64,000 bases of DNA from positions 26,764 to 90,763 of the forward strand of contig CAZHFF010000003.1 in NCBI GenBank assembly GCA_964531785.1, written 5' to 3'. The position numbers and the translations under genes are program-made. This DNA comes from an uncultured Candidatus Saccharibacteria bacterium (GTDB lineage Bacteria; Patescibacteriota; Minisyncoccia; Phycocordibacterales; UBA12088). Each line of letters opens with the position of its first letter. Position 1 is the stretch's first letter. This document shows positions 2,717 to 60,308 of this stretch, in pieces. The notes under the pieces were generated by a model. That model searched no databases, had not been told where the DNA came from, and worked only from the letters and a program-made list of their open reading frames with translations.

Positions 2717-3751
2717 ATGCAAGAGGATCCGTTCCCGCAGTTCCAGGTTCGCCTTGAACAGAAGCTGGTTACGGCCGAGCGCCGTTCTGCCAGGTTTCTT
2801 CGGCGCACCGCTCCGTTCTGGGGCATGGGTTTTGCCGTACTCCTTTTCCTTGGTGCCTGGGGATACTTTGGCGTGTACCAGCCCTCGGCATTCTTTCCGG
2901 TGCGAACGGTCGTCAATATTCCCCAGGGTGCGACGTTGGTCGAGATCGCAACGATGCTCGAGGATGCGCAGGTCGTTCGTTACGGCATAGCGTTCACCGC
3001 ATTCGTGCTTGCTGAGGGCGGTGCGAACCGCATACAAGCGGGGGACTACTACTTTGACAACAAGCTCACCCTTAGCGAGGTTGCCGATCGGTTGGTGAGC
3101 GGCAATTTCGGTCTCACACCGGTCACGGTGACCATTCCCGAAGGTGCCACGACCTACCAAATGGCCGAGATCTTTCGAACGAAGCTTGACCGGTTCGACC
3201 CGGTGACGTTCCTTGCGCTCGCAAGTGAAAAAGAAGGGTACCTGTTTCCGGACACCTACCAGTTCCTCCCGAACGCGACCGCAGACACGGTCATCGAACT
3301 TATGGAACGCACATTCTATGAGCGCATCTCTGAGCTCGAGGCAGACGTCGCTTCGTTCGGTAGACCACTCCACGAGATCATCACCATGGCGTCGCTCCTC
3401 GAAAAGGAGGCGTACCGACTCGACCATAAGCGCATGATCGCAGGCGTTTTGTGGAAGCGGCTGGAAATAGGTATGCCACTCCAGGTCGACGCGGTGTTCG
3501 GCTTCATCAAGGGTACCCATACGTTCAGCCCACGCTACTCTGATCTTGCGGTAGAGTCTCCCTATAATACGTACAAGTACGACGGGCTACCGCCGGGTCC
3601 GATCAGCAGTCCCGGTCTCGACTCGCTCAAAGCGGCCGTCCAGCCCATAGCAACGGACGCACTGTTCTATCTCCATGGCAGGGATGGGAAGCTGTACGCG
3701 AGCCGCACCTACCAGGAGCATCTCTCGAAAAAGCGGACCTACCTCGACTAG
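2717..3751 (+). CDS. mltG: endolytic murein transglycosylase MltG (YceG-like)
   Basis: N-terminal TM helix, then YYFD...LTLSEVADRL, TIPEG, EGYLFPDTYQF, ASLLEKEA, YNTYKYDGLPPGPISSPG and LFYLHGRDG. Confidence 0.9.
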   Translation: MQEDPFPQFQVRLEQKLVTAERRSARFLRRTAPFWGMGFAVLLFLGAWGYFGVYQPSAFFPVRTVVNIPQGATLVEIATMLEDAQVVRYGIAFTAFVLAEGGANRIQAGDYYFDNKLTLSEVADRLVSGNFGLTPVTVTIPEGATTYQMAEIFRTKLDRFDPVTFLALASEKEGYLFPDTYQFLPNATADTVIELMERTFYERISELEADVASFGRPLHEIITMASLLEKEAYRLDHKRMIAGVLWKRLEIGMPLQVDAVFGFIKGTHTFSPRYSDLAVESPYNTYKYDGLPPGPISSPGLDSLKAAVQPIATDALFYLHGRDGKLYASRTYQEHLSKKRTYLD

Positions 3752-10729: not shown

Positions 10730-10792
10730 GCTGTCCACCGAACCGTTCCTCCCCCACGCTACATTTTGCAGCGTGGTTGCTATACTGTATGT

Positions 10793-13570
10793 ATGCCAGG
10801 TTCATTTTCCGAGACGCCCGCAACGCCTTTCCGCGGGGACCGCAGGTTCACCTCACCAGAAGAGGAGCTCCAGTACCTGCGTGCACAGGTCGCTGAGAAA
10901 GAGCGTCAACTCACGGAGCTCGGGCATCGGCCGGAGCGCGAGGCACTGGTCCATGATGAGCTCGTTCGATACCGGGAGCGTCCCCAGGCCGAGGTGCTCC
11001 ATGAGTCACACCAGCTCACCGACAGCGAGATCCGCGCGATCGTTCTCGATCTGCCACCCGATAAGGATGATGCGGTCATGGCGGAACTCTTGGGCGTCGT
11101 GACGGAGAAGGGTGTACGCAATGCGATCGCGGTCGCCGAGCGTCTCAATAATCCACACCTCGAGGATGACTTCCATCGGGTGCTCGTGCAGTACGTGGCG
11201 CGGGGCTATCCGGCACCGGACCTTGCTGAAAAGGCACCGCTCTTCAACGCGCTCCACATGACCCTGTTCGAGGTGACCTTGCCTGAAAAGACCGGGAGCC
11301 AGGAGGAGCGTCCGCTCAAGGAGGTGATCAGCGCTATGGAGCAGTTCTACCTCGGCATGTTCTCGATCGATGCCGAGTTCCAGGTCAAGGGCCACAAGCA
11401 CTTCGCGCTCGAGGTCGCGGTTTCCGGTGAACGCGAGGACATAGTCTTCTACCTCGCAGTACCGACCGATAAGACGGACCTGTTCGAGAAACAACTGCTC
11501 TCGGTCTTCCCAAAGGCGCGGGCACATGCGGTCGCTGAGGACTACAACATATTCCTTGAGGACGGCGAGACCGCCGTAGCGTATGCGGCGCTCAAGGAGG
11601 ATCCCATCCTTCCGCTCAAAGATTACCGTGAGTTCGATCACGACCCGCTCGCCGTTCTCATCAACACGTTCACCAAGCTTGCGCCGGTCGGCGAAGGAGC
11701 GGCGGTCCAGTACGTCGTAAACCCGACCGGTACGGATACGGTCAGGCGTTACCGGCGCGTGCTCGAGAAGCTCGAGAAGGGTATGAAGCTGCGCGACGCG
11801 CTCCGCGAGGTCCCGGAGACGATGACCGGCGAAGTAGTGAAGCTCTTCCGCGAGCTTGCATGGAACACAAAGAAGCAAGACGATACGGATGCTGCGAAGT
11901 ACGTGGACCAGGGGCTTGTCGAGGAGGTGCGCAAGAAAATGGAAACACCGGTCGCCCTCGTCAACATCCGCCTCGTTGCAAGCGCGCGGACGCCGGGCAG
12001 AGCGGACGCTATTTTGAACGACATCATCAGCTCGTTCAACCAGTTCTACAATACGCGGGGGAATCGATTGCGGTTCGAACGACCGAAGGGAAGTTCGATG
12101 CTCGAGCGGACACGACGGTTCTCGTTCCGGCATTTCGAGCCGAAGAGCGCGCTTCCGCTTTCCGTGCGCGAGCTCACGACACTTATGCATTTCCCGACCC
12201 ACGCGGTCGCCGCGACTCCGCAGCTTCGGACCGTACGCGCGGCACTTGCGCCTGTCCCTATCGGCATGCCGACGTCTGGCACGAAGGTCGGGATCAACAG
12301 CTATCGGGGCGTCGACACCGACATATTTCTCACCGACGAAGACCGGGTGCGTCACCTGTATGTCATCGGTCAGACGGGCACCGGTAAGTCCGGTTTCCTG
12401 CGCACGCTCATCAAGCAGGACATGGACCGTGGTGCCGGGCTCTGTTTCATCGATCCGCACGGCTCCGACGTGGAGGAGATCCTCGAGAACGTACCGCCGG
12501 AGCGCATGCGGGACGTGATCTATTTCGATCCGTCCGACACTGAACATGTCCTCGGCCTTAATATGCTCGAGTACGATCCAAAGAAGCCCGAACAGAAGAC
12601 CTTTGTCATCAATGAGCTGTTCTCCATATTCAAGAAGCTGTATAGCAATAGTCCTGAGAGCATGGGACCCGCGTTCGAGCAGTACTTTAGGAATGCGACC
12701 GCGCTTGTCATGGAGGATCCGGCAACCGGTAACACCATGCTCGACATTTCACGGGTGCTCGCCGATGCGCGCTACCGAGAGCTCAAGCTCACGCGGAGCA
12801 GGAACCCGATCGTGAATCAGTTCTGGCGCGAGATCGCGACCAAAGCACAGGGCGAGGCATCGCTCGCGAACATCGTCCCGTACATCACCAACAAGTTCGA
12901 CATCTTCACCGCGAACGACATCATGCGGCCGATCATCGCCCAGCAGAAGAGCGCGATACGCATGCGTGAGATCATGGACACACGCAAGATACTCCTGGTG
13001 AATCTGGCCAAGGGTAAGCTCGGCGACATCAATGCGAACCTGCTCGGCATGGTCCTTGTCGGCAAGATACTCATGGCCGCGCTCTCACGCGTCGATTCGC
13101 TCGGCAGCGATCTGCCGCAGTTCTACCTCTATATCGATGAGTTCCAGAACATAACCACCAACTCCATAAGCGCCATACTCTCTGAGGCGCGCAAGTACAA
13201 GCTATCGCTCAACATAGCGCACCAGTTCATCGCCCAGCTCGACGAGGGCATACGCGATGCGGTGTTCGGGAACGTCGGCAGTATGGCGGTCTTTCGTGTG
13301 GGGTATGAGGACGCGGAGTACCTCGAAAATCAGTTCAAGCCGATCTTTGAAACCCAGGACATCATGAACATCGAGAACCGCCATGCGTACGTGCGTCTCC
13401 TAGCGCGTGGCGTGCCCCAGCGTCCGTTCTCGATCAAGACCCTCAACTTCCCGAAGGGCAGTACCGAACGCGCGCTCGAGGTAAAGAACCTGTCTGCCCA
13501 GGTGTTCGGTCGTCCGCATGCGGAAGTCGAACGAGAGATCAACATGCGCTACGGGCTGGCGAGCCAATGA
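10793..13570 (+). CDS. TraD/VirD4-like (type IV coupling-protein-like) P-loop ATPase with DUF8128-like N-terminal module
   Basis: Walker A is GQTGTGKS (~12368-12391). Walker B-like is FYLYIDEFQN, followed by SEARKYKLSLNIAHQ. TATACT (10781-10786) plus 6 nt plus ATG at 10793. Confidence 0.75.
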   Translation: MPGSFSETPATPFRGDRRFTSPEEELQYLRAQVAEKERQLTELGHRPEREALVHDELVRYRERPQAEVLHESHQLTDSEIRAIVLDLPPDKDDAVMAELLGVVTEKGVRNAIAVAERLNNPHLEDDFHRVLVQYVARGYPAPDLAEKAPLFNALHMTLFEVTLPEKTGSQEERPLKEVISAMEQFYLGMFSIDAEFQVKGHKHFALEVAVSGEREDIVFYLAVPTDKTDLFEKQLLSVFPKARAHAVAEDYNIFLEDGETAVAYAALKEDPILPLKDYREFDHDPLAVLINTFTKLAPVGEGAAVQYVVNPTGTDTVRRYRRVLEKLEKGMKLRDALREVPETMTGEVVKLFRELAWNTKKQDDTDAAKYVDQGLVEEVRKKMETPVALVNIRLVASARTPGRADAILNDIISSFNQFYNTRGNRLRFERPKGSSMLERTRRFSFRHFEPKSALPLSVRELTTLMHFPTHAVAATPQLRTVRAALAPVPIGMPTSGTKVGINSYRGVDTDIFLTDEDRVRHLYVIGQTGTGKSGFLRTLIKQDMDRGAGLCFIDPHGSDVEEILENVPPERMRDVIYFDPSDTEHVLGLNMLEYDPKKPEQKTFVINELFSIFKKLYSNSPESMGPAFEQYFRNATALVMEDPATGNTMLDISRVLADARYRELKLTRSRNPIVNQFWREIATKAQGEASLANIVPYITNKFDIFTANDIMRPIIAQQKSAIRMREIMDTRKILLVNLAKGKLGDINANLLGMVLVGKILMAALSRVDSLGSDLPQFYLYIDEFQNITTNSISAILSEARKYKLSLNIAHQFIAQLDEGIRDAVFGNVGSMAVFRVGYEDAEYLENQFKPIFETQDIMNIENRHAYVRLLARGVPQRPFSIKTLNFPKGSTERALEVKNLSAQVFGRPHAEVEREINMRYGLASQ

Positions 13571-15736: not shown

Positions 15737-17233
15737 TTACGAGCCTTGCTCTCGCTCCTCTGTCCTTTGCGTCACGGCCGGTCCGTTCGGCGTGTCCTCG
15801 ATCGTGTAGCCGTGGGCAAGCACTTCCGCACGGAGACGGTCCGCGTCAGCATAGCGTTTCTCTTTGCGGGCTTGTTCGCGTGCCTCGACCGCTTCGCGCA
15901 CCTCTTTGGGTTGGTCGTTGTGACCCACGACTCGAAGCGTGATCTGTGACACAGCACCCTTCGTCAGCTCGAGCAGTCCCAGCCCGAGGAGCTTGTCGAA
16001 ATAGAGCAGGGTCGCTCGCTTGTCGCCCGGCGTAAGTGCGGTGCTCTTCACGACCGCGGCCAGAAGGGCCACGGCCTTCGGTGTATCAAGGTCATCATTG
16101 AGCGCGAGCACGAGCTGCTCCCGGTACGAGGGATCGATCGACCCGTTCTGATACTCCATGAGCTCCTCGACGAAAAGGCGATGGATACGCCGCAGCGCGG
16201 TCTCGGCTCCACTGAGCGCACCGAAACTGAACATGATAGGGCTTCGGTAGTGGCTGGTGAGGAGCCAGTAGCGGTAGCCGAGCGGATGACAGCCGTGCTC
16301 AACAAGTTGGCGCAAGCGTATCGCATTGCCTGCCGATTTTGCGATCCTGGCACCTTCGATCGAAAGGTGCTCGCTGTGGAGCCAGAAGCGCGCGAAGGGC
16401 TTCCCGGTCGCGGCCTCGCTCTGTGCTATTTCGTTGTTGTGATGCGTGCCGATGTGATCAACACCGCCAGTATGGATATCGAGCTCCTTGCCGAGATACT
16501 CCATACTCATTGCCGAGCACTCGATGTGCCAACCGGGGAACCCTTTCCCCCATGGGCTTTCCCACCCCAGGTCGTCGCCGCGCTTCCAGAGCGCGAAATC
16601 CGCCGGATGGCGTTTTTCCGGATTGGTCTCGACCCGTGCGCCCGGTTTTTGTGCGCTCGTGTCAATGCCGCCAAGCTTGCCGTAGCCGCTGAAGCGCGTC
16701 GTGTCGAAGTAGACACCGTCGCTCGTGCGGTATGCGTACTCCTTTTCTATGAGCGTACTGATGAGCGCGATCATGCCGTGAATGTGTTGGCTCGCTCGTG
16801 GCAGCTCACCGGGGCGTTTGATGAGGAGACTATCGAGGTCTTCGAGGAACGCCTCGGTGTAGCGGTCGGCAAGTGTCGTGAGGCCCTCGAGACTTATTGG
16901 CAGCCCCTCGCGCTTGAGGCCAACGGTCATCTTGTCTTCGCCCTGGTCTGCGTCCGACGTTAGGTGACCGACATCGGTGATGTTCATGACCTGCATGACC
17001 TTGTAGCCGTTCGCACGCAAGGTCCTGCGAAGAATGTCAACGAATACGTACGTGCGCAGGTTGCCGATATGGGCATAGTCATAGACCGTCGGTCCGCAGT
17101 TGTACATGCGGACGTAGTCGCTCTTCTGCGGGGTAAAGCGTTCCTTGGTACGGGTGAGCGTATTGTAGAGGTAGAGCGGCGGTCTGGCGCCTGCTGCGCC
17201 GTCCGCAGTACCGCCGAACATGAAGGGAAACAT
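15737..17233 (-). CDS. cysS: cysteine--tRNA ligase
   Basis: MYNCGPTVYDYAHIGNLRTY (HIGH), a class I core, and the KMSKS-equivalent AKSAGN. TATACT (17245-17240) plus 6 nt plus ATG. Confidence 0.9.
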   Translation of the reverse strand: MFPFMFGGTADGAAGARPPLYLYNTLTRTKERFTPQKSDYVRMYNCGPTVYDYAHIGNLRTYVFVDILRRTLRANGYKVMQVMNITDVGHLTSDADQGEDKMTVGLKREGLPISLEGLTTLADRYTEAFLEDLDSLLIKRPGELPRASQHIHGMIALISTLIEKEYAYRTSDGVYFDTTRFSGYGKLGGIDTSAQKPGARVETNPEKRHPADFALWKRGDDLGWESPWGKGFPGWHIECSAMSMEYLGKELDIHTGGVDHIGTHHNNEIAQSEAATGKPFARFWLHSEHLSIEGARIAKSAGNAIRLRQLVEHGCHPLGYRYWLLTSHYRSPIMFSFGALSGAETALRRIHRLFVEELMEYQNGSIDPSYREQLVLALNDDLDTPKAVALLAAVVKSTALTPGDKRATLLYFDKLLGLGLLELTKGAVSQITLRVVGHNDQPKEVREAVEAREQARKEKRYADADRLRAEVLAHGYTIEDTPNGPAVTQRTEEREQGS

Positions 17234-17464: not shown

Positions 17465-18382
17465 TTACAACCACTTGCGGTGCTTGAAGTAGGCAAAGAA
17501 CGCGATGGTAGCAGCTGCCATGACCCCGACGATGATGTAAAAATCGTACGGGTGTCCGACGATGGGCAGGTATTCCGTGTTCATGCCGAAGAGCGAGGTA
17601 AAGAGCGAGAGCGGAAAGGTGACGAACGCCAGGATCGTGAACACCTTCATGACCTCGTTCTGTTTGCTCGTGAGCAACGAATCGTTGGTGGCGCGCAGTT
17701 CAAGGAGCGATGCGCGGTGACCCTGTATCGCACTGTCGAGTCGTTCATATTCACCTATCGCGCTTCTCAGGTACCGAGCGTATTCATAGCCGAAGAGAGC
17801 GACCCCCGGGCGCTCGGTGCTCTTCAGCATCTCGTAGTGCGACCGAAGCGCCTGGGTGAAGTTGAGAATGTCGCGAGCTATATGCGAGAGCTCGATGACC
17901 ATCTCTTTCTCATGCCCCAGGAAGATACGTTCCTCGGCTTCTTCAAGGCGGATGTTGAGATGTGACAGCTCGCTGCCAAGGCCCTGGTAGAGCTCCATGA
18001 GCATGAAATAGAACACAAAGCCCGCGTGCTCGCTCATGCGGCTCTTGTCGAGCACGGACTCCATCTCAAAGAGCGTACTGAACTGGAGCAGAGGGTCGAC
18101 TGCGGCGTAGCGGGTCGTGATGATCCAGCTGTCTCCTACGATGAAATCGAGCTCAAGCGTGCTGCCGGCCAGGCCGTGCATGTGCTTGAAGGTCGGGAAG
18201 TGAAGGACGACGTAGAAGTATCCGTCCCGCACCTCGACGTGGTTCTTGACCGACGGGACCAGGAGCTCATCCGCGACGAGCGGGTCGAGGTCATATTCAT
18301 CAACGAGCGAACGCACCTCCTCAGTCGTCGGTTTGCTGACATCGATCCACGTGACCGCGCCGTGTTTGTGCCGAGCGAGCAT
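17465..18382 (-). CDS. corA: magnesium/cobalt transporter CorA
   Basis: GMNTEYLP (the GMN motif) before the last TM helix. TATACT (18394-18389) plus 6 nt plus ATG. Confidence 0.9.
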   Translation of the reverse strand: MLARHKHGAVTWIDVSKPTTEEVRSLVDEYDLDPLVADELLVPSVKNHVEVRDGYFYVVLHFPTFKHMHGLAGSTLELDFIVGDSWIITTRYAAVDPLLQFSTLFEMESVLDKSRMSEHAGFVFYFMLMELYQGLGSELSHLNIRLEEAEERIFLGHEKEMVIELSHIARDILNFTQALRSHYEMLKSTERPGVALFGYEYARYLRSAIGEYERLDSAIQGHRASLLELRATNDSLLTSKQNEVMKVFTILAFVTFPLSLFTSLFGMNTEYLPIVGHPYDFYIIVGVMAAATIAFFAYFKHRKWL

Positions 18383-24069: not shown

Positions 24070-24672
24070 ATGATCATCGTCGACGTCGAAGCATCCGGAG
24101 TTAACTACGAAAAGCACTCGATCCTCTCGGTCGGTGCGCTGGACCTTGAGCAGCCGGAGCTTCGGTTCTATCGGGAGTGCCGGGTTTGGGACGGCGCCCA
24201 CATCGATGACGAAGCGCTCGCCGTATGCGGCTTCACACGGGAAGAGGCGACCGACAGCGCGAAGGATACTGAGGCGCAGCTCGTAGCACAGTTCCTGACC
24301 TGGGCTGACGGCGCTGAAGATCAAACGCTCGCGGGTCAGAACGTTTCCTTCGATCGCGATTTCCTTCGTGCTGCTGCGGAGCGGGCAGGGTACAACTGGC
24401 CGTTCGCGTACCGCACGCTCGACACGCACTCGCTCGCTTACCTGCATATGGTGGAGCGGGGAATACCGGTGCCCCAGAAGAACCGGCACAGCGGACTCGA
24501 CCTGGACGCGGTGCTCGTGTACGTCGGCATACCCCAGGAACCGCAACCGCACAATGCGCTGACCGGCGCACTCTGTCATGCGGAAGTGATCTCACGACTA
24601 CTTTTCGGCAAAAAGCTCCTTCAGGAATTCGTGCAGTACGACCTGCCTGACCCGATACAAAAACGGTACTAA
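24070..24672 (+). CDS. DEDDh 3'-5' exonuclease (DnaQ-like)
   Basis: IIVDVEASG (Exo I), GQNVSFDRDFL (Exo II) and HNALTGALCHAEV (Exo III). TATCAT (24056-24061) plus 8 nt plus ATG. Confidence 0.8.
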   Translation: MIIVDVEASGVNYEKHSILSVGALDLEQPELRFYRECRVWDGAHIDDEALAVCGFTREEATDSAKDTEAQLVAQFLTWADGAEDQTLAGQNVSFDRDFLRAAAERAGYNWPFAYRTLDTHSLAYLHMVERGIPVPQKNRHSGLDLDAVLVYVGIPQEPQPHNALTGALCHAEVISRLLFGKKLLQEFVQYDLPDPIQKRY

Positions 24673-24686
24673 GTACCTTTTCTTGT
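24656..24686. repeat. palindromic element, copy a (core GGTACTAAGTACC at 24665-24677)
   Basis: ACAAAAACGGTACTAAGTACCTTTTCTTGT. It contains the exonuclease stop codon and is imperfect, with a 1-nt bulge. Confidence 0.8.
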
Positions 24687-24757
24687 CGTCGATACATGAC
24701 CATCGCCTGGGCAGCTGTTGAGGTAACAGCCTAGGTACAGGGAGTATAGTACAGAGC

Positions 24758-24794
24758 TTCCCATAAAAAGGTACTTAGTACCTTTTTATGGGAA
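24758..24794. repeat. palindromic element, copy b (inverted core GGTACTTAGTACC at 24770-24782)
   Basis: Perfect 17-bp stem TTCCCATAAAAAGGTAC / GTACCTTTTTATGGGAA with a 3-nt loop. Confidence 0.85.
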
Positions 24795-32355: not shown

Positions 32356-32499
32356 TCGTTGTGCTCGGGAAACGCAGACACGGAGCGCATCCGCGCTTTT
32401 TGTTGCTCGGTTGTTGGTTCAGGTCCGCATAAACCCAGGGCAGTACTCCACACCAAGCAGGCACTTCACCGTGCCGCCGCTCCGCGGTATACTTGCTGT

Positions 32500-33921
32500 A
32501 TGCGTACTCGATACGGAATCGCGCTCATTCTAGCACTCACGATCGGCGTCCTATCGTTTTCGACGGCGCTCGATATCGGCCATGCCCAAACAGGCGAACA
32601 GTTGGTCGCTAAGCGGCGTGCCGAACTTGAAGCGCAGCTCGCAGAGCTTGAGAAACTGATCCAGCAGCAACAGACCCTGCTGTCGAGCAAACAAGGGGAA
32701 CGCGTGTCGCTCGAGCGCGACCTCGGCATCATCGATACGAAGATAGCAAAAGCGCGGCTCGACATTCGTGCCCGCGAACTGGCGCTGTCGAAGCTCCAGG
32801 ACGAAATATTTGATAAGGAGGTCACCATTATAGAGCTTACCGACCGGCTCGACCGCGAGAAAGAGTCCCTGGCAGAGCTCGTGCGTAGGACCGCGGAAAT
32901 AGACGACATGTCGCTCGTCGAAATCGTCCTCTCTGGCAAGAGCTTCTCAGAGTTCTTCGAGGAGTTCGACGATTTCGAGGCGGTCAAGATCGCGCTGCAG
33001 CACTCGTTCGAGGAGATCGAAACGCTGCGCGACCAGAACCATCAGGTGAAGAGCGCTCTCGAGAACAAACATTCGAGCGAAGTTGACCTGAAGCAGCTCC
33101 AGTTGCTACAGAAACAGAAGCTCGATGAAGAGGAGCAGGAAAAGGCACGCATCCTCAAGGCGACGAAGGGTCAAGAGGTGCAATACCAGCAAATGCTTGC
33201 CACCTCGCAGCGTACCGCAGCACAGATACGGAGCGAGCTTTTCGAATTGCGAGGCTCCGCTGCGATCAACCTCGGGGAGGCTATCGAGTACGCGAACTTC
33301 GCGAGCGCCAAGACGGGCGTTCGCCCGGCCCTGATCCTGGGTATCCTCAAGCAGGAGACCCGACTCGGCGAGTTCCTTGGGAACGGTAACTGGCAGAGCG
33401 ACATGCACCCGACCCGTGACCGGCCGCTCTTCCAGGTCATAGCCGCGACCCTAGGCGTCGATCCCAACCGCATGCCGGTCTCGGCAAAGCCCGGGTATGG
33501 GTGGGGAGGTGCTATGGGTCCCGCACAGTTCATACCTTCGACCTGGGCGTGCTATGGCGGGTATATCAATCAGAAGAGCGGTGATTGTAACAATAGCGCC
33601 CGCAGCTTCGACTGGGACACGTTCTGGGCAGGACCCTGGGCCTACAATCCGAACGCTGACCGGTTACGTGCCGTGCGGGGTAAGCAGAGCCCCTCGAACC
33701 CGTGGGATAATCAGGATGCGTTCATCGCCGCAGGTATCCTCATGAAAGATAACGGCGCCGACCGGGGTGGGTATGAGGCCGAGCGGCTTGCGGCGCTTCG
33801 CTACTTCGCCGGGTGGGGAAATGCCTCGAACCCGAGCTATGCGTTCTATGGCGACGGAGTCATGGAGCACGCCGCGTACTACCAAAAGCAGATCGACGCC
33901 CTAAAACAGCTCGGACAGTAA
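32500..33921 (+). CDS. secreted coiled-coil protein with C-terminal lytic murein transglycosylase (SLT_2/MltB-like) domain
   Basis: Signal/TM segment, a long heptad-rich region, then GILKQETRLG...GAMGPAQFIPSTW. Confidence 0.7.
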   Translation: MRTRYGIALILALTIGVLSFSTALDIGHAQTGEQLVAKRRAELEAQLAELEKLIQQQQTLLSSKQGERVSLERDLGIIDTKIAKARLDIRARELALSKLQDEIFDKEVTIIELTDRLDREKESLAELVRRTAEIDDMSLVEIVLSGKSFSEFFEEFDDFEAVKIALQHSFEEIETLRDQNHQVKSALENKHSSEVDLKQLQLLQKQKLDEEEQEKARILKATKGQEVQYQQMLATSQRTAAQIRSELFELRGSAAINLGEAIEYANFASAKTGVRPALILGILKQETRLGEFLGNGNWQSDMHPTRDRPLFQVIAATLGVDPNRMPVSAKPGYGWGGAMGPAQFIPSTWACYGGYINQKSGDCNNSARSFDWDTFWAGPWAYNPNADRLRAVRGKQSPSNPWDNQDAFIAAGILMKDNGADRGGYEAERLAALRYFAGWGNASNPSYAFYGDGVMEHAAYYQKQIDALKQLGQ

Positions 33922-37941: not shown

Positions 37942-38014
37942 GCCGGAGTAGCTCAGATGGTAGAGCGGCGCTTTTGTAAAGCGTTGGTCGGAGGTTCGAG
38001 TCCTCTCTCCGGCT
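37942..38014 (+). tRNA. tRNA-Thr (anticodon UGU), no encoded CCA
   Basis: Acceptor GCCGGAG/CTCCGGC, D-arm AGCTCAGATGGTAGAGC, anticodon arm GCGCT-TTTGTAA-AGCGT and T-arm GGAGGTTCGAGTCCTCT. Confidence 0.85.
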
Positions 38015-54063: not shown

Positions 54064-55851
54064 CTACGATGTCGCACGGTCGATGTCGAGCTGTACCAGG
54101 GTCTCGACCACTGTGTCTTTGGGTAGGGACTGCGAGCTGCCATCGCGACTCTCAAGCGTCACATTCTCTTCGGCGACCTCTTTGTCGCCGATCACGGCAA
54201 AGTAGGGTAGTTTTTCCAGTTTAGCGGCACGTATCCTTTTGCCGAGGGACTCGTCCGACTGATCGAGCTCGGCACGGATACCCGCTGCTTTGAGCTGTGC
54301 GAAGAGGTCTGCTGCATAGGTACGGTGCGCCTCTCCTATCGGCAGGATACGCACCTGGACCGGCGCGAGCCAGAACGGGAACGCGCCGGCATAGTGCTCG
54401 ATCAGGAACGCGAAGGTGCGTTCCAGGCAGCCGATGGCGCTCCGGTGTATCATGACAGGCCGCTTCTTTTTGCCGTCCGCATCGGTATAGGTGATGTCGA
54501 ACTTCTCAGGCAACAGAAAGTCCATTTGCGCGGTGAAGAGCGTGTCTTCTTTGCCGTTAACGTTACGTGCCTGGACATCGAGCTTCGGTCCGTAGAATGC
54601 CGCTTCGTCCTCGGCCTCCGTGTAGGTGAAGCCAAGCTCATCGAGCGCCTCCTTCATCGTTCCTTCGGCCTTGTTCCACAGCTCGTCGTCCGGGTAATAC
54701 TTTTCCTTGTTCGCGCGGTCCCGTTTTGAGAAGCGGTACGTGACGCTCGCGTCGAGCCCCAAGCCACGCATGCCCTCCTCGATGAGGCGACAGACGTTCT
54801 TGAACTCGTCCTTCAGTCCTTCGGGGCTCACGAACAGGTGCGCATCGGTGAGCTGGAACTTCCGCACCCGTATCATGCCCATGAGCTCGCCCGACTTCTC
54901 GTACCGGTTGTAATCCGCTATTTCCGCATAGCGTACGGGGAGGTCCTTGTAGCTCAGTGGTTTACGCAGGAGGAGGCGTATGTGGTGGGGGCATGCCATA
55001 GGGCGGAGGTAGAACACCTCGCCGTCCATGTCGATGGGTGCGTACATGTTGTCCTTGTAATGCGCCAGGTGTCCAGAGGTATGGTAGAGCTTCTCGTGCG
55101 CGAGATAGGGGGTTGAGACATGGTCGTACCCGTACTTTCGCTCGAGGTCCCGGGTGAACTGCTCGAGCGCGAACTTCATCGCGGTTCCCTTAGGGGTCCA
55201 CATGGGGAGGCCCTTGCCCACCTCCTCATCGATATAGAACAGGTCAAGCTCACGCCCGAGCTTTTTGTGGTCGCGCTTCTTTGCCTCCTCGAGTTGCGTC
55301 TGGTACGCCGCCAGGGCTTCTTTGCTCTCAAATGCAAGGCCGTAGATGCGGGTGAGCATCGCGTTCTTCTCGCTTCCGCGCCAGTACGCGCCTGCCATGT
55401 GGGAAAGGGTGTACCCCATGCCCGGGATGTCTTTGCTCGGGTGTTCTGCATGACCCCCGCGACAGAGGTCGTGGAATTGTGCGCTGTCGAGCGTGCAGTG
55501 CTCGTTCTCACAGGACTTGTAGATGGTGAGCTTCTCGCCCCGGGCGGCGATCTCCTCGATGAGCTCGAGCTTGTATTCGTTCTTTGCGAATACGCCCTGT
55601 GCCTGCGCTCGGTCGACCTCCTCACCCTCGATAGTGTGCCACTTTTTCACGATCTCGCGCATCTTTTGTTCGATCGTCTTTAGGTCATGATCGCCTGGCT
55701 TCTCGCCTTGGCCAAAGTCGAAGTCATAGTAGAATCCGGTATCGATCGCCGGACCCAAGGTCGGCTTGGCGTGTGGGTAGAGCTCATGCACTGCGGCTGC
55801 GAGCACATGGGCGAGCGTGTGGCGTCTGGCTTGTAGTTCTTCAGGGTTCAT
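54064..55851 (-). CDS. thrS: threonine--tRNA ligase (no N-terminal TGS domain)
   Basis: HTLAHVLAAAV (editing/SAD domain), class II motifs and a C-terminal anticodon-binding domain. Confidence 0.9.
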   Translation of the reverse strand: MNPEELQARRHTLAHVLAAAVHELYPHAKPTLGPAIDTGFYYDFDFGQGEKPGDHDLKTIEQKMREIVKKWHTIEGEEVDRAQAQGVFAKNEYKLELIEEIAARGEKLTIYKSCENEHCTLDSAQFHDLCRGGHAEHPSKDIPGMGYTLSHMAGAYWRGSEKNAMLTRIYGLAFESKEALAAYQTQLEEAKKRDHKKLGRELDLFYIDEEVGKGLPMWTPKGTAMKFALEQFTRDLERKYGYDHVSTPYLAHEKLYHTSGHLAHYKDNMYAPIDMDGEVFYLRPMACPHHIRLLLRKPLSYKDLPVRYAEIADYNRYEKSGELMGMIRVRKFQLTDAHLFVSPEGLKDEFKNVCRLIEEGMRGLGLDASVTYRFSKRDRANKEKYYPDDELWNKAEGTMKEALDELGFTYTEAEDEAAFYGPKLDVQARNVNGKEDTLFTAQMDFLLPEKFDITYTDADGKKKRPVMIHRSAIGCLERTFAFLIEHYAGAFPFWLAPVQVRILPIGEAHRTYAADLFAQLKAAGIRAELDQSDESLGKRIRAAKLEKLPYFAVIGDKEVAEENVTLESRDGSSQSLPKDTVVETLVQLDIDRATS

Positions 55852-55879
55852 AGGACGATGGGTTACTACTTAAGTGTAT

Positions 55880-56013
55880 AGGACTTAGGCATTTGGATGA
55901 AGTTCGAGGCGCCGAGAAGCGAAGATCCGATGCGTACTGGCAGTACGGAGAGGATCTGAGCGCCGATGGTAGCAATGACCAAAGATTACTTTTGTGCCAA
56001 ATGCGTAGGTCCT
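55880..56013. ncRNA. unassigned, strongly structured ~134-nt element between the attenuator-like U-tract and thrS
   Basis: Nested helices: 55880-84/56009-13, 55889-96/55997-56004, 55908-12/55960-64, 55923-28/55952-57 and 55933-38/55942-47. Confidence 0.3.
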
Positions 56014-56020
56014 CTGTAAT

Positions 56021-56040
56021 AAAAAACCTCCGCGGGGGAG
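56021..56040 (-). terminator. weak terminator of the putative thrS leader
   Basis: On the minus strand: CUCC-CCCGC-GGAG, then G, then U6 (56026-56021). The stem is only 4 bp. Confidence 0.35.
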
Positions 56041-56075
56041 TGTGTAGCGTTACGACAACCCCGCTCCTGTCGGTC

Positions 56076-56108
56076 TCAGGTCGCGGTTGTGGTCGTTGCT
56101 CGGATCAT
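56076..56108 (-). CDS. putative leaderless Thr-rich leader peptide MIRATTTTAT
   Basis: ATG ATC CGA GCA ACG ACC ACA ACC GCG ACC TGA. The ATG lies 6 nt after a -10-like TAGGAT. Confidence 0.4.
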   Translation of the reverse strand: MIRATTTTAT

Positions 56109-56114
56109 GGGGTA

Positions 56115-56143
56115 ATCCTAGCGCGGGGTGGGGGAGTTGTAAA
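56115..56143 (-). promoter_or_regulatory. putative promoter of the thrS leader (TTTACA, 17 nt spacer, TAGGAT)
   Basis: On the minus strand: TTTACA (56143-56138) and TAGGAT (56120-56115). Confidence 0.4.
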
Positions 56144-56550
56144 GCACTCGGTTGACCGCACACGTAGGCGTAGCACATGAACCTTTTTCACGAGCGTTTT
56201 GGTGCATGCGCCCAGGTTTGAAAGGTAGCTCACACATGGTTTATGTGGCGATCACATTAGGTCAGCCGTATCGCGTTATCTTGCAGCGTGAAAGGACCTC
56301 AGGCATGTTCCACGTCTGCTGATGGCCTTATCCGTCTGTTCGACAATGTGTCCGACCACTTGCGACCTCAGCGTCTGTTCTGCGATGTACGGTGCCCTCC
56401 GTACCAGTGTAGTTAGATGTGCCAATAGCGCATCCAGCACATCATGCGTGTGACTACTTGTATGAAAAAACGTGAAAGGTGTTGCCTCGCACGTGATGGT
56501 TTAGAGTACGTGACTGGAAATGTGCGCTGTTTCGGGGTACGCTAGCGTCT

Positions 56551-58509
56551 ATGGACCTGCATACCGTTCGAACCAAATACATTGAGTTTTTTAAAGCACG
56601 GGGACACGCGGAGATCCCGTCTGACAAGCTGGTGCCGGAAAACGACCCCACGACGCTCTTTACCGGCTCGGGCATGCAGCCCCTGGTACCGTATCTTTTG
56701 GGTGAGAGTCACCCCAAAGGTACGCGACTGGTCGACAGTCAGAAGTGTTTTCGCTCGATGGATATCGAGGAGGTTGGTGACAACAGACACACGACCTTCT
56801 TTGAGATGCTCGGCAACTGGTCCTTGGGTGACTACTATAAAAAGGAGCAGATCCCGTGGATGTTCAGCTTTCTCGTTGACGAGCTCGGACTCAATGCTGA
56901 GCGCCTCTACATCACCTGTTTTATCGGTGCACCTGAGTACGATATCCCGAAGGATGAAGAAGCTGCCGAACTGTGGCAAAAGTTGTTTCAAGAAAAGGGA
57001 ATTCGTGCAGACATCGTTGACATCAATACAGAAGCCGATGGCTATAAGCGCGGCATGAAGGACGGCGAACGTATCTTTTATTACGAAGGAAAGAAGAACT
57101 GGTGGAACCGAGGCAAGACAGGCCCGGAGACGACTCCGATCGGTGACCCGTGCGGACCCGATTCAGAGATGTTCTATGAGTTTACCGATGTGGAACATGA
57201 CACGGCGTTCGGTGAGCGTTGCCACCCCAACTGTGACTGCGGGCGTTTTATGGAAATAGGGAACAACGTGTTCATGGCGTACCGGAAGGTTTCGGAAGAC
57301 ACATTCACGCCGCTCGAAAAGCCGAATGTCGATCAGGGTTCAGGCTTGGAGCGTATCGCCGCTGCAGTAGCGAACAGCTCGGATATCTTTCCTATAACGC
57401 ACGGTTCTATTATCGAGTACCTGGAAAAAGTCTCAGGGAAAGCATATGCGGATGATAAGCGTAGCTTCCGCATCATCGCCGACCATATGAAGGGAGCGGT
57501 GTTCCTCATTGGTGATGGTGTGTATCCCTCGAACACCGATCAGGGCTACTTTGTACGGCGCCTCCTTCGTCGTGCGGTGCGATACGCAGACAAGCTCGGC
57601 ATGAAAGAGAGCGGCCTTTCGGGTGTGGTGGATGCGGTCGTGGAGATGTACGAGAAACAGTACCCGGTACTGCGAGATAAGAGAGAAGATATAAGAAATA
57701 AGATAGATGAGGAAGAGAAGAAGTTTAGGACAACTTTAAGACGAGGTTTAAAGGTGTTTGAAAAAACGTTTAGGCTTCATTCGGGATCATACTCAAAACA
57801 CGAAAAACCTACAGACGCGGAGATCAACACCATTCTCAGATCGCAACCAGAAGAAATTTCGCCACAGGATATATTTGAGTTGATTTCGACGTACGGTTTC
57901 CCAATGGAGCTAATTAAGGAAATCGCTACAGAAAAGCAGATCTTCATTTCTGAGCAAACTCTTGCTCATGTTGACATGCTGATTGAAAATCATCGGCAGC
58001 TTTCCCGAGCAGGAGCAGAGCAAAAGTTCAAGGGCGGTCTTGCGGATGCGGGTGAGGTGACGACGATGCTCCACACCTGCACCCACCTCATGTTGGCGGG
58101 ACTGCGTAAATACCTTGGGCCTGATGTGCACCAGGCAGGGAGCAACATCACCGCAGAGCGCACACGCTTCGACTTTACGTACCCGGAGAAAGTGCCCCGT
58201 GAGATTCTCGACAAGGTAGAGGCGTATGTGAACGAAGCGATACAGAAGAAATGTCCGATGACCAAGACCCTTATGAAAAAGGAGGACGCCAAAGCTGCTG
58301 GAGTGGAAGGGAGCTTCTGGGAGAAGTACCCGGATGAGGTAAACGTCTACGCGGTCACTTGTGACGATGGGACAGTATACAGCGCAGAGCTCTGTGGCGG
58401 CCCGCATGTCGCAAGCACCGCCGATATTAAAGGTACGTTCAAGATCATCAAAGAAGAAGCCTCGAGCGCGGGCGTGCGGAGGGTGAAAGCGGTACTTGTC
58501 GATGCCTAG
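56551..58509 (+). CDS. alaS: alanine--tRNA ligase (652 aa, lacks C-Ala domain)
   Basis: RTKYIEFFKARGH...FTGSGMQP...FEMLGNWSLGDYYK, the editing domain HTCTHLM and CGGPHV. TACGCT (56538-56543) plus 7 nt plus ATG. Confidence 0.9.
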   Translation: MDLHTVRTKYIEFFKARGHAEIPSDKLVPENDPTTLFTGSGMQPLVPYLLGESHPKGTRLVDSQKCFRSMDIEEVGDNRHTTFFEMLGNWSLGDYYKKEQIPWMFSFLVDELGLNAERLYITCFIGAPEYDIPKDEEAAELWQKLFQEKGIRADIVDINTEADGYKRGMKDGERIFYYEGKKNWWNRGKTGPETTPIGDPCGPDSEMFYEFTDVEHDTAFGERCHPNCDCGRFMEIGNNVFMAYRKVSEDTFTPLEKPNVDQGSGLERIAAAVANSSDIFPITHGSIIEYLEKVSGKAYADDKRSFRIIADHMKGAVFLIGDGVYPSNTDQGYFVRRLLRRAVRYADKLGMKESGLSGVVDAVVEMYEKQYPVLRDKREDIRNKIDEEEKKFRTTLRRGLKVFEKTFRLHSGSYSKHEKPTDAEINTILRSQPEEISPQDIFELISTYGFPMELIKEIATEKQIFISEQTLAHVDMLIENHRQLSRAGAEQKFKGGLADAGEVTTMLHTCTHLMLAGLRKYLGPDVHQAGSNITAERTRFDFTYPEKVPREILDKVEAYVNEAIQKKCPMTKTLMKKEDAKAAGVEGSFWEKYPDEVNVYAVTCDDGTVYSAELCGGPHVASTADIKGTFKIIKEEASSAGVRRVKAVLVDA

Positions 58510-58514
58510 CACCC

Positions 58515-58541
58515 ACAAAAAGGTACTAAGTACCTTTTTGT
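58515..58541. repeat. palindromic element, copy c (core GGTACTAAGTACC at 58522-58534)
   Basis: Perfect 12-bp stem ACAAAAAGGTAC/GTACCTTTTTGT, 6 nt after the alaS stop codon. Confidence 0.85.
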
Positions 58542-58981: not shown

Positions 58982-59022
58982 CCCACACCAGAAAAGGTAC
59001 TAAGTACCTTTTCTGGTGTGGG
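58982..59022. repeat. palindromic element, copy d (core GGTACTAAGTACC at 58996-59008)
   Basis: Perfect 19-bp stem CCCACACCAGAAAAGGTAC/GTACCTTTTCTGGTGTGGG. Confidence 0.85.
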
Positions 59023-59117
59023 GTACGTGTGCGGGTGGTGCTTGCTGTACGTTCGGTTTTCCACTGCTCAGCCCTTCTGTGGCGCCGCTCTCCGCTGTCG
59101 AGCGGTATACTTACCCC

Positions 59118-60308
59118 ATGGGTATACCCTTTGGGCATGGTAAGGAACCAGGTGCGGTGGCCCTTTTTGACGTGGGAAGCGCGAGCGTCGGTGTGGGCAT
59201 CGCGGTCCACACACATGAGGGTGTGCGGCTCCTGTGGGACATGCGCTTGTCGTACGCGTACCAGCGCGATCTCGACTACTTACGGTTCGAACGGTCGATG
59301 CTTGCCACCTTGCTCGAAGCGGGCATGCGGCTCACAACTGAAGGTGTACAGGCGGCACAACAAAAACACTCGTTTCCTATCTCGAGCCTTCGACCGGTCT
59401 GCATTCTGTCAGAGCCCTGGTTCATTGGCGGGGTGCGCGAGAGTACGGTCACCAAAGAACAGGGGGTCACGGTGACCCCTGCGGTCCTCGAGGACCTTGA
59501 ACGCAGGGCCCGGCAGGAGTTCGAGACCAGCAAACAGATGAGCACCTGGCATGATGTCATGGGTACCGACACGACACTTCTGGATACGCGTGCACTCCAG
59601 GTTTCGCTCGATGGGTATCCGGTGACCAAGTACCTCGGCCGCAAGGCGTGCCAGCTGCGTATGGTGGTCTATGCGGCGCACGCACCAAAGACCGTGCTTG
59701 CGGAAGTCGAGGACGTGCTTCTGAAGACGTTGCCGAGCCAACGGGTCGAATTCCGGACGAGCACCGAAGTGGCGTACGGTGCGCTCGAAGTTCAGGGTCT
59801 GACGCATGGGAACCTGCTCCTGGTCGAGCTCGGCGGTGAGATCACCTCGGTCGCGCTCATCCGTAAAAGCGCGCTCCGTGCGGTCCGCGTGTTCCCGCTC
59901 GGCACGAACCATGTGCTTCGGGAAGGGTTTCCCCAGGTGGCGAGCTACGCTGAAGCCCGGGGGAAGCTCGAGCTCCTCAAGCCGGAACCCGCTAAACAGG
60001 GCGATACACCGCCTTTACCGAAGGGGGTGGTGCACAGCTTAAAGGAGTGGCACGAGAGCTTGATCAAAGCCGTGACGGAGCTCAGCGAGGGCATTACGCC
60101 GCCACGCAACGCGGTCCTTATCGCGAACGAACTCTGGAAACCATGGTTCATACCTGCCCTCCGGAGTCCGTGGAAACAGCCCGGCGTACGGACCGAGCTC
60201 GGATTCTCGGTGGTCGAGCAGCAAGGAGTACTGGGTACCGGGTCTGCGGCAGCACGTGCCGCAGACGGAAGGATCGCGTCTATGCTGCGAGGGATATTGA
60301 CACGCTAG
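59118..60308 (+). CDS. hypothetical protein with actin-like (ASKHA: FtsA/PilM/MreB-type) ATPase motifs
   Basis: ALFDVGSASVGVGI (phosphate-1-like) and LLLVELGGEITSVALI (phosphate-2-like). TATACT (59106-59111) plus 6 nt plus ATG. Confidence 0.45.
   Translation: MGIPFGHGKEPGAVALFDVGSASVGVGIAVHTHEGVRLLWDMRLSYAYQRDLDYLRFERSMLATLLEAGMRLTTEGVQAAQQKHSFPISSLRPVCILSEPWFIGGVRESTVTKEQGVTVTPAVLEDLERRARQEFETSKQMSTWHDVMGTDTTLLDTRALQVSLDGYPVTKYLGRKACQLRMVVYAAHAPKTVLAEVEDVLLKTLPSQRVEFRTSTEVAYGALEVQGLTHGNLLLVELGGEITSVALIRKSALRAVRVFPLGTNHVLREGFPQVASYAEARGKLELLKPEPAKQGDTPPLPKGVVHSLKEWHESLIKAVTELSEGITPPRNAVLIANELWKPWFIPALRSPWKQPGVRTELGFSVVEQQGVLGTGSAAARAADGRIASMLRGILTR

Follow-up and report, generated by a model that had tools for sequence, protein, structure and literature searches.

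What controls the expression of thrS, the threonyl-tRNA synthetase gene, in an ultra-small, Kaiserbacteria-like Patescibacterium, and is the threonine-rich micro-ORF that lies upstream of this gene part of a ribosome-mediated attenuator or merely a coincidental arrangement of AC-rich sequence? The question was raised by a preliminary description of a 64,000-nucleotide stretch of DNA from this organism (the window), which placed a leaderless threonine-rich micro-ORF, a chain of mutually exclusive helices and a U6 tract on the minus strand upstream of thrS, and which proposed a leader-peptide attenuator of the kind found in E. coli. Every element of that description was found exactly where it had been placed, so that the observation itself is confirmed. 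The features of the region, all on the minus strand, are the following.

56138 to 56143, minus strand: the -35-like hexamer TTTACA of the leader promoter.
56115 to 56120, minus strand: the -10-like hexamer TAGGAT, 17 nt after the -35-like hexamer and, across TACCCC, 6 nt before the ATG.
56076 to 56108, minus strand: the leader micro-ORF, MIRATTTTAT, with its ATG at 56108-56106 and its TGA stop at 56078-56076.
56085 to 56096, minus strand: a run of four Thr codons, ACG ACC ACA ACC, the presumed stalling site; a fifth Thr codon, ACC, lies at 56081-56079.
56077 to 56100, minus strand: segment 1, the 5' arm of the 1:2 hairpin, covering most of the ORF including the Thr codons.
56046 to 56069, minus strand: segment 2, the 3' arm of the 1:2 hairpin, whose core GCGGGG (56064-56059) alternatively pairs with segment 3.
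56032 to 56040, minus strand: segment 3, CUCCCCCGC, either the 3' partner of the antiterminator (CCCCGC, 56037-56032) or the 5' arm of the putative terminator (CUCC, 56040-56037).
56021 to 56031, minus strand: segment 4, GGAG (56031-56028) and a following G, plus the U6 tract (56026-56021), the 3' arm and tail of a putative weak intrinsic terminator.
55863 to 56022, minus strand: a structured spacer domain of about 160 nt between the attenuator and thrS, which includes a hairpin at 55923-55957.
54064 to 55851, minus strand: thrS, the presumed regulated gene, with its ATG at 55851, encoding a 595-aa class II synthetase with tRNA-synt_2b and HGTP_anticodon domains.

The first step in evaluating the proposal is to determine whether these elements exceed what chance would produce within the window. 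A promoter scan of 55700-56700 selected exactly this promoter-like site as its only sigma-70-like match on the minus strand, although a match of this kind is not significant on its own (2 found against 0.7 expected). The scan found no other sigma-70-like site between the leader and thrS, and there is no co-oriented upstream gene to which the putative terminator could belong, because alaS is divergent. The distance from the -10-like hexamer to the ATG corresponds to a leaderless geometry which is common in this organism: nine genes in the window have the exact hexamer TATACT 6-8 nt before an ATG, and Shine-Dalgarno motifs are almost absent, so that the organism appears to initiate translation mostly without leaders, and the leader ORF likewise has no Shine-Dalgarno motif. 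Five of the ten codons of the ORF are Thr codons, and it is the only ORF of 4-30 codons in the window with a Thr run of at least four, as well as the only intergenic homopolymer-run ORF with a -10-like hexamer at leaderless distance. A search of the window for leaderless ORFs with runs of Ala or of other amino acids, for example before the divergent alaS, found none.

The second step is to determine whether the helices are compatible with an attenuation switch. The pairing of ACAACC (56090-56085), inside the Thr codons, with GGUUGU (56060-56055) is the core of a much longer imperfect hairpin, 56100-56046, which folds at -21.6 kcal/mol, was also recovered as an inverted repeat, and has a complementarity that exceeds dinucleotide shuffles of the spacer (p = 0.002). 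The alternative 2:3 pairing, GCGGGG with CCCCGC, which competes for the 5' arm of the putative terminator, lies within a structure of -15.1 kcal/mol (p = 0.044). When the leader was folded with a ribosome mask, the window sequence gave the 1:2 hairpin plus the 3:4 hairpin when the RNA was free, and the 2:3 helix without a terminator when the ribosome was stalled. The 3:4 stem, CUCC with GGAG followed by U6, has only 4 bp, at -3.2 to -5.0 kcal/mol, and was missed by a terminator scan with a 5-bp threshold; it is the weakest of the five such hairpins described here, the hairpins in relatives having energies of -5.8 to -10 kcal/mol or more, with U tracts. The small size of this stem, which the preliminary description had itself given as a caveat, may be less damaging than it looks, because genuine intergenic terminators in this genome are equally small, for example GGUACUUAGUACC followed by U5, at -3.6 kcal/mol, which occurs at two gene ends. 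The second caveat in that description, the distance of about 170 nt between the U tract and thrS, is also real.

The third step is comparison with relatives, since the absence of the micro-ORF or of its Thr codons from related genomes had been named beforehand as a result that would count against the proposal; the comparison came out in its favour. A scan of a genome collection with full-length ThrRS was swamped by the generic motif GFYYDFDF and gave only two close relatives, whereas an alignment search of metagenomes with a clade-specific fragment of 35 aa gave 45 loci. Four other species, identified here by the labels of their loci, have ThrRS 63-74% identical and carry the same co-linear layout upstream of thrS: a sigma-70-like promoter, a -10 hexamer 6-8 nt before an ATG, an ORF of 9-13 codons ending in 4-7 consecutive Thr codons, and, within 83-106 nt of the ATG, a hairpin and U-rich tract in which the 5' arm of the terminator can alternatively pair with an upstream segment. 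The layouts are TTTACA-N17-TACCAT-N7-ATG with the peptide MVTTTTTTT in L082/83/84/115; TTGACA-N17-TATAGT-N7-ATG with the peptide MVHIFFNGTTTTA in L087; TTTACA-N17-TAGGAT-N8-ATG with the peptide MVPVTTTTTP in L092; and TTGACA-N16-TATTCT-N6-ATG with the peptide MLISLNTTTTTTP in L137. In the alignment of the five species the -35 hexamer of the window is matched by TTTACA in L092 and L082 and by TTGACA in L087 and L137, the -10 hexamer is identical in L092, and the core ACCAC-AC of the Thr run is invariant, but the sequences are otherwise unrelated. The five leaders are too divergent for an alignment in helix register, and complementarity was consequently evaluated by shuffle tests, in which the complementarity of the antiterminator to the 5' arm of the terminator exceeded shuffles in all five species (p = 0.044 in the window, and 0.001, 0.013, 0.02 and <0.001 in the four relatives); a Fisher combination, calculated by hand, gives about 1e-6 or lower. 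Ribosome-mask folding of L137 gave a clean switch, with the terminator formed when the RNA was free or the ribosome was at the stop codon and the antiterminator formed when the ribosome was stalled on the Thr codons. In L082, L087 and L092, however, the 2:3 helix can be extended by an outer helix that also abuts the U tract, and thermodynamic folding therefore does not give a clean off/on picture there.

The signal is specific to threonine. In 118 non-redundant thrS upstream regions, ATG ORFs of 4-30 codons with a run of at least four identical residues number five on the sense strand, which are those of the five species and are all Thr, and one, Leu, on the antisense strand; a looser Thr-rich criterion finds the same five only, and over 1.7 Mb of fetched loci the run ORFs with leaderless geometry are dominated by these. 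However, only 5 of 39 loci with at least 60% ThrRS identity have the leader, and all of the sequences are metagenome assemblies. Of the five species, four of nine lie in the immediate ThrRS subclade of the window and one is in a distant subclade, while the nearest branch in the NJ tree, L081, uses the same promoter directly on a leaderless thrS. A sister species, L089/90/125, carries a different attenuation device at the same place, a T-box-like antiterminator/terminator; such switching of sensors is documented for aminoacyl-tRNA synthetase (aaRS) genes (PMC2965389). Searches with Rfam of 19 relatives' loci and of the L089 leader made no T-box call, although the L089 antiterminator looks canonical.

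Taken together, these results support the interpretation given in the preliminary description, and its assignment of the organism to the Parcubacteria/CPR is also right. The explanation which we consider likely, though not certain, is that the region is a ribosome-mediated, threonine-responsive transcription attenuator of thrS built on a leaderless leader peptide. In this view, transcription starts at, or 1 nt from, the A of the ATG at 56108, driven by TTTACA-N17-TAGGAT, and a ribosome loads on the 5'-terminal AUG and translates MIRATTTTAT. When Thr-tRNA(Thr) is plentiful, the ribosome would finish and leave, segment 1 would pair with segment 2, and segment 3 would be left free to form the small CUCC/GGAG hairpin in front of U6, so that part of the polymerases would terminate near 56021. 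A ribosome paused at the stop codon would not reach segment 2, so that termination would depend on fast release of the ribosome. When charged tRNA(Thr) is scarce, the ribosome would stall on ACG ACC ACA ACC and keep segment 1 covered, segment 2 would pair with segment 3, the terminator could not form, and transcription would continue through the 160-nt spacer into thrS, raising ThrRS. The Thr codons are mixed (ACG/ACC/ACA/ACU across species), and the sensor would in this view report overall tRNA(Thr) charging, that is, ThrRS activity or threonine supply, rather than one isoacceptor. The analysis directly establishes the sequence elements, their energies, their statistical excess and their recurrence in five species, while the start of transcription, the translation of the ORF, termination at U6 and the response to threonine, including increased read-through when threonine or charged tRNA is short, are inferred from sequence alone.

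The mechanism itself is textbook, and its closest counterparts are best compared one at a time. The E. coli thr operon leader (thrL) and the trpL, hisL and pheL leaders combine a short ORF carrying a run of regulatory codons with mutually exclusive 1:2, 2:3 and 3:4 helices, as seen here, and with an intrinsic terminator with a U tract and read-through on ribosome stalling, as proposed here, but they have a Shine-Dalgarno-led ORF, a leader of about 140-160 nt and strong terminators, and they control biosynthetic operons, while the present region is leaderless and compact (88 nt from the AUG to the end of U6), has a putative terminator of 4 bp, would control the synthetase, belongs to a lineage generally lacking amino-acid biosynthesis, and has no sequence homology to them. 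In E. coli pheM-pheST, and in the His-codon leader peptides upstream of hisS paralogues in bacilli (Naville and Gautheret 2010, PMC2965389), leader-peptide attenuation is applied to an aaRS gene for the cognate amino acid and is interchangeable with T-boxes in evolution, but the amino acid and the phyla are different and the leader ORFs are SD-dependent. Leaderless leader peptides upstream of aaRS genes have been proposed in Streptomyces lividans TK24, including thrL-thrS, alaL-alaS, trpL2-trpS and leuL2-leuS (Droste et al. 2021, PMC8079986), where a leaderless transcript whose first codon starts a short ORF upstream of thrS was proposed to be a threonine-dependent attenuator. The Streptomyces peptide (MKRVRPFLETTPGFVPAR) has only two Thr, no U-rich terminator was found, and the evidence is a mapped TSS in one species, whereas the present evidence, which is of sequence alone, consists of runs of 4-7 Thr, explicit terminator/antiterminator pairs and recurrence in five species of an unrelated phylum, with no detectable homology. 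What is new is therefore the lineage, in which no such device had been reported.

Two further systems act on the same gene. T-box riboswitches on thrS (Firmicutes thrS/thrZ; Rfam RF00230) would share with the proposed attenuator the regulated gene, the signal (tRNA(Thr) charging) and the output (antitermination), but the T-box sequence GGGUGGNACCGCG, which is present in L089, is absent from the window leader, and Rfam searches of 55700-56700 gave no hit at the gathering score or at E<=10, the only Rfam match in the window being a tRNA-Thr gene elsewhere; sensing here would be through the translating ribosome and not by direct tRNA binding. In the E. coli thrS translational operator, ThrRS binds anticodon-arm mimics in its own leader, and autogenous-type control of this kind by RNA structure next to the start codon is conceivable for the 160-nt spacer, but that system has no leader ORF and no terminator, and inspection by eye of the MFE fold of 55849-56022 showed the loops CAUUGCU, GCC and others, none of which is a 7-nt xGU loop with a Thr anticodon in tRNA-like context.

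The spacer domain of the window copy is unexplained and significantly structured. It folds at -44 kcal/mol (z = -3.63, with 0 of 200 shuffles as good), contains three inverted repeats, has no Rfam hit, and has no second copy in the window or in any fetched locus, so that the idea of a mobile element is unsupported. It might carry its own control, or it might reflect an insertion that uncoupled the device. The best surviving rival, which we nevertheless consider unlikely, is that the device is real in the clade, but the copy in the window is a decaying or uncoupled relic, its terminator having eroded to 4 bp and a structured element having been inserted, so that it acts only as a long 5' UTR with little threonine response. 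This reading is favoured by the weakness of the terminator, by the fact that only here does a spacer with about 25-nt terminal inverted complementarity and no relatives separate the U tract from thrS, while in the other four species the terminator lies 20-45 nt from the ATG, and by the evident loss of the leader in sister species. Against it, the ORF, the Thr run, the promoter hexamers (identical to L092) and both alternative helices are intact, the 1:2 hairpin is the most significant of all five, equally small hairpins serve as gene-end terminators in this genome, and no alternative promoter for thrS was found downstream.

A less likely rival is that the main regulator of thrS is the structured domain next to the start codon, for example a ThrRS-binding operator of the E. 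coli thrS kind or an unknown riboswitch, and that the upstream unit is mainly a short independent transcript, a small RNA ending at U6. The strength of the spacer fold, whose closing stem ends about 10 nt before the thrS ATG, is consistent with this, a promoter, hairpin and U6 would make an RNA of about 88 nt, and attenuator-derived small RNAs acting in trans exist (rnTrpL, PMC6614838). However, no Rfam family matches, no anticodon-like loops were seen by inspection, the domain is not found in any relative whereas the micro-ORF unit is, and the Thr codons are left unexplained; this reading is also not exclusive with the main explanation. Coincidence, in which unrelated features of a long divergent intergenic region are combined and the Thr run is a by-product of one arm of a GU/AC-rich hairpin, can appeal to the non-significant promoter match, to a fold z-score of only -1.9 for the leader alone and to the fact that ACN repeats are what an arm complementary to GGUUGU-type sequence looks like, but it is strongly disfavoured by the recurrence in five species with different sequences, always in frame with a leaderless ATG, always upstream of thrS and with no other amino acid, and by the conservation of the promoter hexamers with L092.

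Patescibacteria/CPR are uncultivated and have tiny genomes, and almost nothing is known about their gene regulation. If the attenuator operates as proposed, it would show that these cells tune a synthetase to amino-acid supply with the classical ribosome-stalling logic, and that leaderless initiation is fast enough to be coupled to a polymerase only about 90 nt ahead. The occurrence of a leader peptide, a T-box-like element and a bare leaderless thrS in sister species would give a clean natural example of sensor switching. In practical terms, short Thr-run ORFs of this kind are missed by gene callers and by Rfam, and the five examples give a template for annotating them. A bolder and distinctly speculative proposal is that Kaiserbacteria-like Patescibacteria regulate thrS by at least three interchangeable 5' devices within one family-level clade: a leaderless Thr leader peptide, a T-box-like element that escapes the Rfam model, and no leader at all. 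The leaderless peptide would then imply tight coupling between RNA polymerase and a ribosome that loads on a 5'-terminal AUG only about 85-105 nt ahead of the termination point, which would be the first attenuation system, and indirect evidence for transcription-translation coupling, in the candidate phyla radiation, and in the window the spacer domain would be a second, unknown sensor, such as a ThrRS-binding operator, making this a two-stage control region.

The surroundings of the element were also examined. The possibility that the 699-nt intergenic region hides a remnant of the gene of 139-188 aa which precedes thrS in relatives was tested with tblastn, which found nothing. A second Thr-run ORF is present in L137, but the fragment of the gene behind it was too short and had no homologue, and tblastn against the fetched loci and the window found nothing. 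The organism itself is present in SRR9016294, and its only other assembly, L142, is identical to the window over 4.2 kb.

The minus strand between 56500 and 55700 was read directly in order to establish whether the elements proposed in the preliminary description, namely a promoter, a threonine-rich micro-ORF, three mutually exclusive helices and a U tract upstream of thrS, are present, and every one of them was found where it had been placed, so that the observation itself is confirmed. The elements of the region and its flanking genes are as follows.

56143-56138, minus strand: hexamer TTTACA of the sigma-70-like promoter, followed by 17 nt
56120-56115, minus strand: hexamer TAGGAT of the same promoter, followed by TACCCC
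56108, minus strand: ATG of the micro-ORF ATG ATC CGA GCA ACG ACC ACA ACC GCG ACC TGA, which reads MIRATTTTAT and a stop
56100-56077, minus strand: 5' arm of a long imperfect hairpin (1:2), lying within the ORF
56069-56046, minus strand: 3' arm of the same hairpin
56027 and 56026-56021, minus strand: the G and the U6 tract that follow the small CUCC/GGAG hairpin (3:4)
56022-55863, minus strand: structured domain of 160 nt
55957-55923, minus strand: inner palindromic hairpin of that domain
55851-54064, minus strand: thrS, an ORF of 595 aa with tRNA-synt_2b and HGTP_anticodon domains
56551-58509, plus strand: alaS, divergent from thrS

Because alaS is divergent, the leader lies in a 699-nt divergent intergenic region and cannot be the terminator of a co-oriented upstream gene. 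A promoter scan returned the TTTACA/TAGGAT site as the only minus-strand sigma-70-like match in the kilobase, but it found no terminator meeting its criterion of a 5-bp stem. A search against Rfam returned nothing in the region even at E<=10, and the only RNA gene found in the window is a tRNA-Thr(UGU) at 37942.

The free leader is predicted to fold into the long hairpin between the ORF and 56069-56046, at -21.6 kcal/mol, of which the shorter helix given in the preliminary description is the core, followed by the small CUCC/GGAG hairpin and U6. The alternative structure, in which GCGGGG pairs with CCCCGC (2:3), has an energy of -15.1 kcal/mol, while the terminator hairpin reaches only -3.2 to -5.0 kcal/mol. 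When compared to dinucleotide shuffles of the spacer, the 1:2 complementarity has p = 0.002 and the 2:3 complementarity p = 0.044. If the nucleotides that would be covered by a ribosome with a Thr codon in its A site are forced to be single-stranded, the minimum-energy fold switches from 1:2 plus 3:4 to 2:3 with no terminator hairpin. A ribosome sitting on the stop codon, however, does not reach segment 2, and termination in the window would therefore require the ribosome to leave, as in the "no ribosome" branch of the classical model.

The ThrRS proteins closest to that of the window are annotated as Patescibacteria, Paceibacterota or Kaiserbacteria, and, apart from an identical copy (P0001) from another assembly of this organism, the nearest is 74% identical. 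Nine genes in the window carry the exact hexamer TATACT 6-8 nt before an ATG (for example 15737-17233(-), 17465-18382(-), 10766-13570(+), 32359-33921(+) and 59016-60308(+)), alaS has TACGCT-N7-ATG, and only 4 of 60 long ORFs have even a loose Shine-Dalgarno match. The leaderless geometry claimed in the preliminary description is thus confirmed; a 5'-terminal AUG is a normal start signal here, and the organism appears to use mostly leaderless mRNAs. For several of these ORFs the leaderless ATG lies 27-141 nt inside the longest ORF, so that automatic start calls would be too long. Among all ORFs of 4-30 codons in the window with a homopolymeric run of at least 4 residues, the thrS leader is the only one with a Thr run, and it is also the only intergenic one with a -10-like hexamer at leaderless distance.

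Loci containing thrS in related organisms (designated by L numbers) were collected by a genome scan, by look-ups of the closest proteins, and by a metagenome scan with an alignment of a clade-specific 35-aa fragment. Four further species have the same arrangement upstream of thrS.

Table. Thr leaders upstream of thrS in four related species. Given in order are the locus, the ThrRS identity, the promoter and start, the peptide (each followed by a stop codon) and the downstream elements.
L082/83/84/115; 73%; TTTACA-N17-TACCAT-N7-ATG; MVTTTTTTT; ACAACGACA/UGUCGUUGU, GGCGGG/CCCGCC, GACCCCG-CCA-CGGGGUC, then a U-rich tail
L087; 74%; TTGACA-N17-TATAGT-N7-ATG; MVHIFFNGTTTTA; GCGGGCGG/CCGUCCGC, a small hairpin, U7
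L092; 71%; TTTACA-N17-TAGGAT-N8-ATG; MVPVTTTTTP; AACACCC/GGGUGUU, GCGGG/CCCGC, CCCGC-ACGGC-GCGGG, U6
L137 (low G+C); 63%; TTGACA-N16-TATTCT-N6-ATG; MLISLNTTTTTTP; GGGGAGCU/AGCUCCCC, an 11-bp terminator

A MAFFT alignment of the five leaders places the -35, the -10, the ATG, the Thr run (with an invariant ACCAC-AC), the stop, the GC-rich segments and the T tract in register, although the mean identity is only 55%. The distance from the AUG to the end of the U tract is 83-106 nt in all five, the Thr run always ends 0-2 codons before the stop, and the Thr codons are mixed (ACA/ACC/ACG/ACU).

As a control for specificity, ATG ORFs of 4-30 codons with a run of at least 4 identical residues were counted in 118 non-redundant thrS upstream regions of 300 nt each. 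The sense strand has five, all of them Thr, while the antisense strand has one, which is Leu. A looser criterion (at least 3 Thr and at least 25% Thr, with any start codon) adds no further locus among the listed loci with at least 58% ThrRS identity. Over all 1.7 Mb of fetched loci, on both strands, ORFs that combine a TANNNT hexamer 5-8 nt before the ATG with a run of at least 4 residues are almost exclusively these, the exceptions being two chance-looking ones and a second Thr-run ORF in L137. The latter (L137 1-330, minus strand) is leaderless and divergent from the thrS leader, with the layout TTGACA-N16-TATTAT-N6-ATG and the peptide MISSKNYILTTTTTSPFWRVSVVM, and it is followed by a strong terminator, a GAAGGAGG Shine-Dalgarno and a gene cut by the contig end; ribosome-mask folding predicts no switch for it, and no homologue of the 36-aa fragment of the gene was found. 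The 2:3 complementarity exceeds that of shuffles in all five thrS leaders (p = 0.044, 0.001, 0.013, 0.02 and <0.001), and combination of these values by Fisher's method, calculated by hand, gives about 1e-6 or lower, whereas the 1:2 pairing is individually significant in two (0.002, 0.035) and weak in three.

Under ribosome masks L137 behaves as a textbook attenuator, in that the terminator forms when the RNA is free or the ribosome is at the stop, and the antiterminator forms when the ribosome is stalled on Thr codons 1-5. The window behaves consistently, but with a weak terminator. In L082, L087 and L092 the 2:3 helix can be prolonged by an outer helix that also ends next to the U tract, and equilibrium folding therefore cannot by itself show an "open" state, the outcome being a matter of kinetics. 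The weakness of the terminator in the window is mitigated by the form of the gene-end terminators in this genome: a recurrent palindromic, bidirectional mini-terminator, AAAAAGGTACTAAGTACCTTTTT (5-bp stem, -3.6 kcal/mol), occurs at two intergenic gene ends (24663-24783 and 58521-58535), one of them just after alaS, and a related GGTACTAAGTACCTTTT lies just before 59016.

In a neighbour-joining tree of ThrRS, the subclade of the window holds nine species, of which four have the Thr leader (the window, L087/88, L092 and L082/115), one has a T-box-like leader (L089/90/125), and four have neither (L081, L091, L003 and L085/86); L137 lies in a distant subclade. The promoter itself is conserved across the window's subclade. 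L081, the nearest branch, has TTTACA-N17-TAGATT-N7-ATG directly on thrS (2927-3001), which is a leaderless thrS with no attenuator, while L003 and L085 have TTTACA-N17-TACCAT with a 45-nt UTR. This suggests that the leader module has been gained or lost between a fixed promoter and the gene. ThrRS homologues in L123 (1018-1935) and L098 (2452-3672), which are 81% and 75% identical to the enzyme of the window, begin at about residue 190 and so lack the N-terminal editing domain, and neither has a Thr leader.

The leader of the sister species L089 (1700-2030; also L090 and L125) folds into helix A1 (GCCGGG/CCCGGC), a 7-nt bulge UGGAACC and helix A2, and this structure overlaps a terminator of -39.6 kcal/mol followed by U5, which is the canonical design of a T-box antiterminator. 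The loop of an upstream hairpin, CCACCGA, contains ACC. The T-box model of Rfam does not detect this leader, even at E<=10. Switching between T-box and leader-peptide sensors on the same aaRS gene is a documented pattern (PMC2965389).

The logic of the element is that of the classical leader-peptide attenuators (thrL, trpL, hisL) and, for a synthetase, of pheM-pheST. Leaderless leader peptides upstream of aaRS genes, including a "thrL" before thrS, were proposed from TSS mapping in Streptomyces lividans, where the peptide has two Thr and no U-rich terminator (PMC8079986). No report of a thrS leader peptide in the Patescibacteria or candidate phyla radiation was found in literature searches, which covered open-access papers only. 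The interpretation offered in the preliminary description, that of a ribosome-mediated attenuator of thrS, is supported. The analysis shows the sequence elements, their predicted energies, their excess over shuffles and their recurrence in relatives, while the transcription start, the translation of the ORF, the termination at U6 and the response to threonine are inferred; the element is well supported by comparative evidence but as yet has no experimental support. It is considered likely, though not certain, that the window element is a functional Thr-responsive leader-peptide attenuator of thrS; that it is a decaying copy which recently was one is possible but unlikely. What would be added to current knowledge is the extension of a textbook mechanism into the CPR, with a leaderless start and an example of sensor switching, rather than a new principle.

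One feature of the window that remains odd is the 160-nt stretch between U6 and the thrS ATG (56022-55863), which folds into one closed domain at -44 kcal/mol (z = -3.63, with 0 of 200 shuffles as good). The domain has an interrupted closing stem of roughly 25 nt and an inner palindromic hairpin containing GTACTG-C-CAGTAC. It has no Rfam match, no second copy and no counterpart in relatives, and it is unique to this genome among all the sequences fetched. It may be an insertion, a second sensor or a stabilizing structure; the other assembly of this organism is identical and so offers no polymorphism to exploit. Further upstream, within the approximately 350 nt of the intergenic region that are unassigned (56144-56500), a hairpin, CGUGCGAGGCAACACCUUUCACG, followed by U6 lies at 56465-56493 on the minus strand, about 320 nt upstream of the leader promoter on the same strand and just inside the alaS promoter region, where it may be an insulator terminator or the end of an unannotated small transcript.
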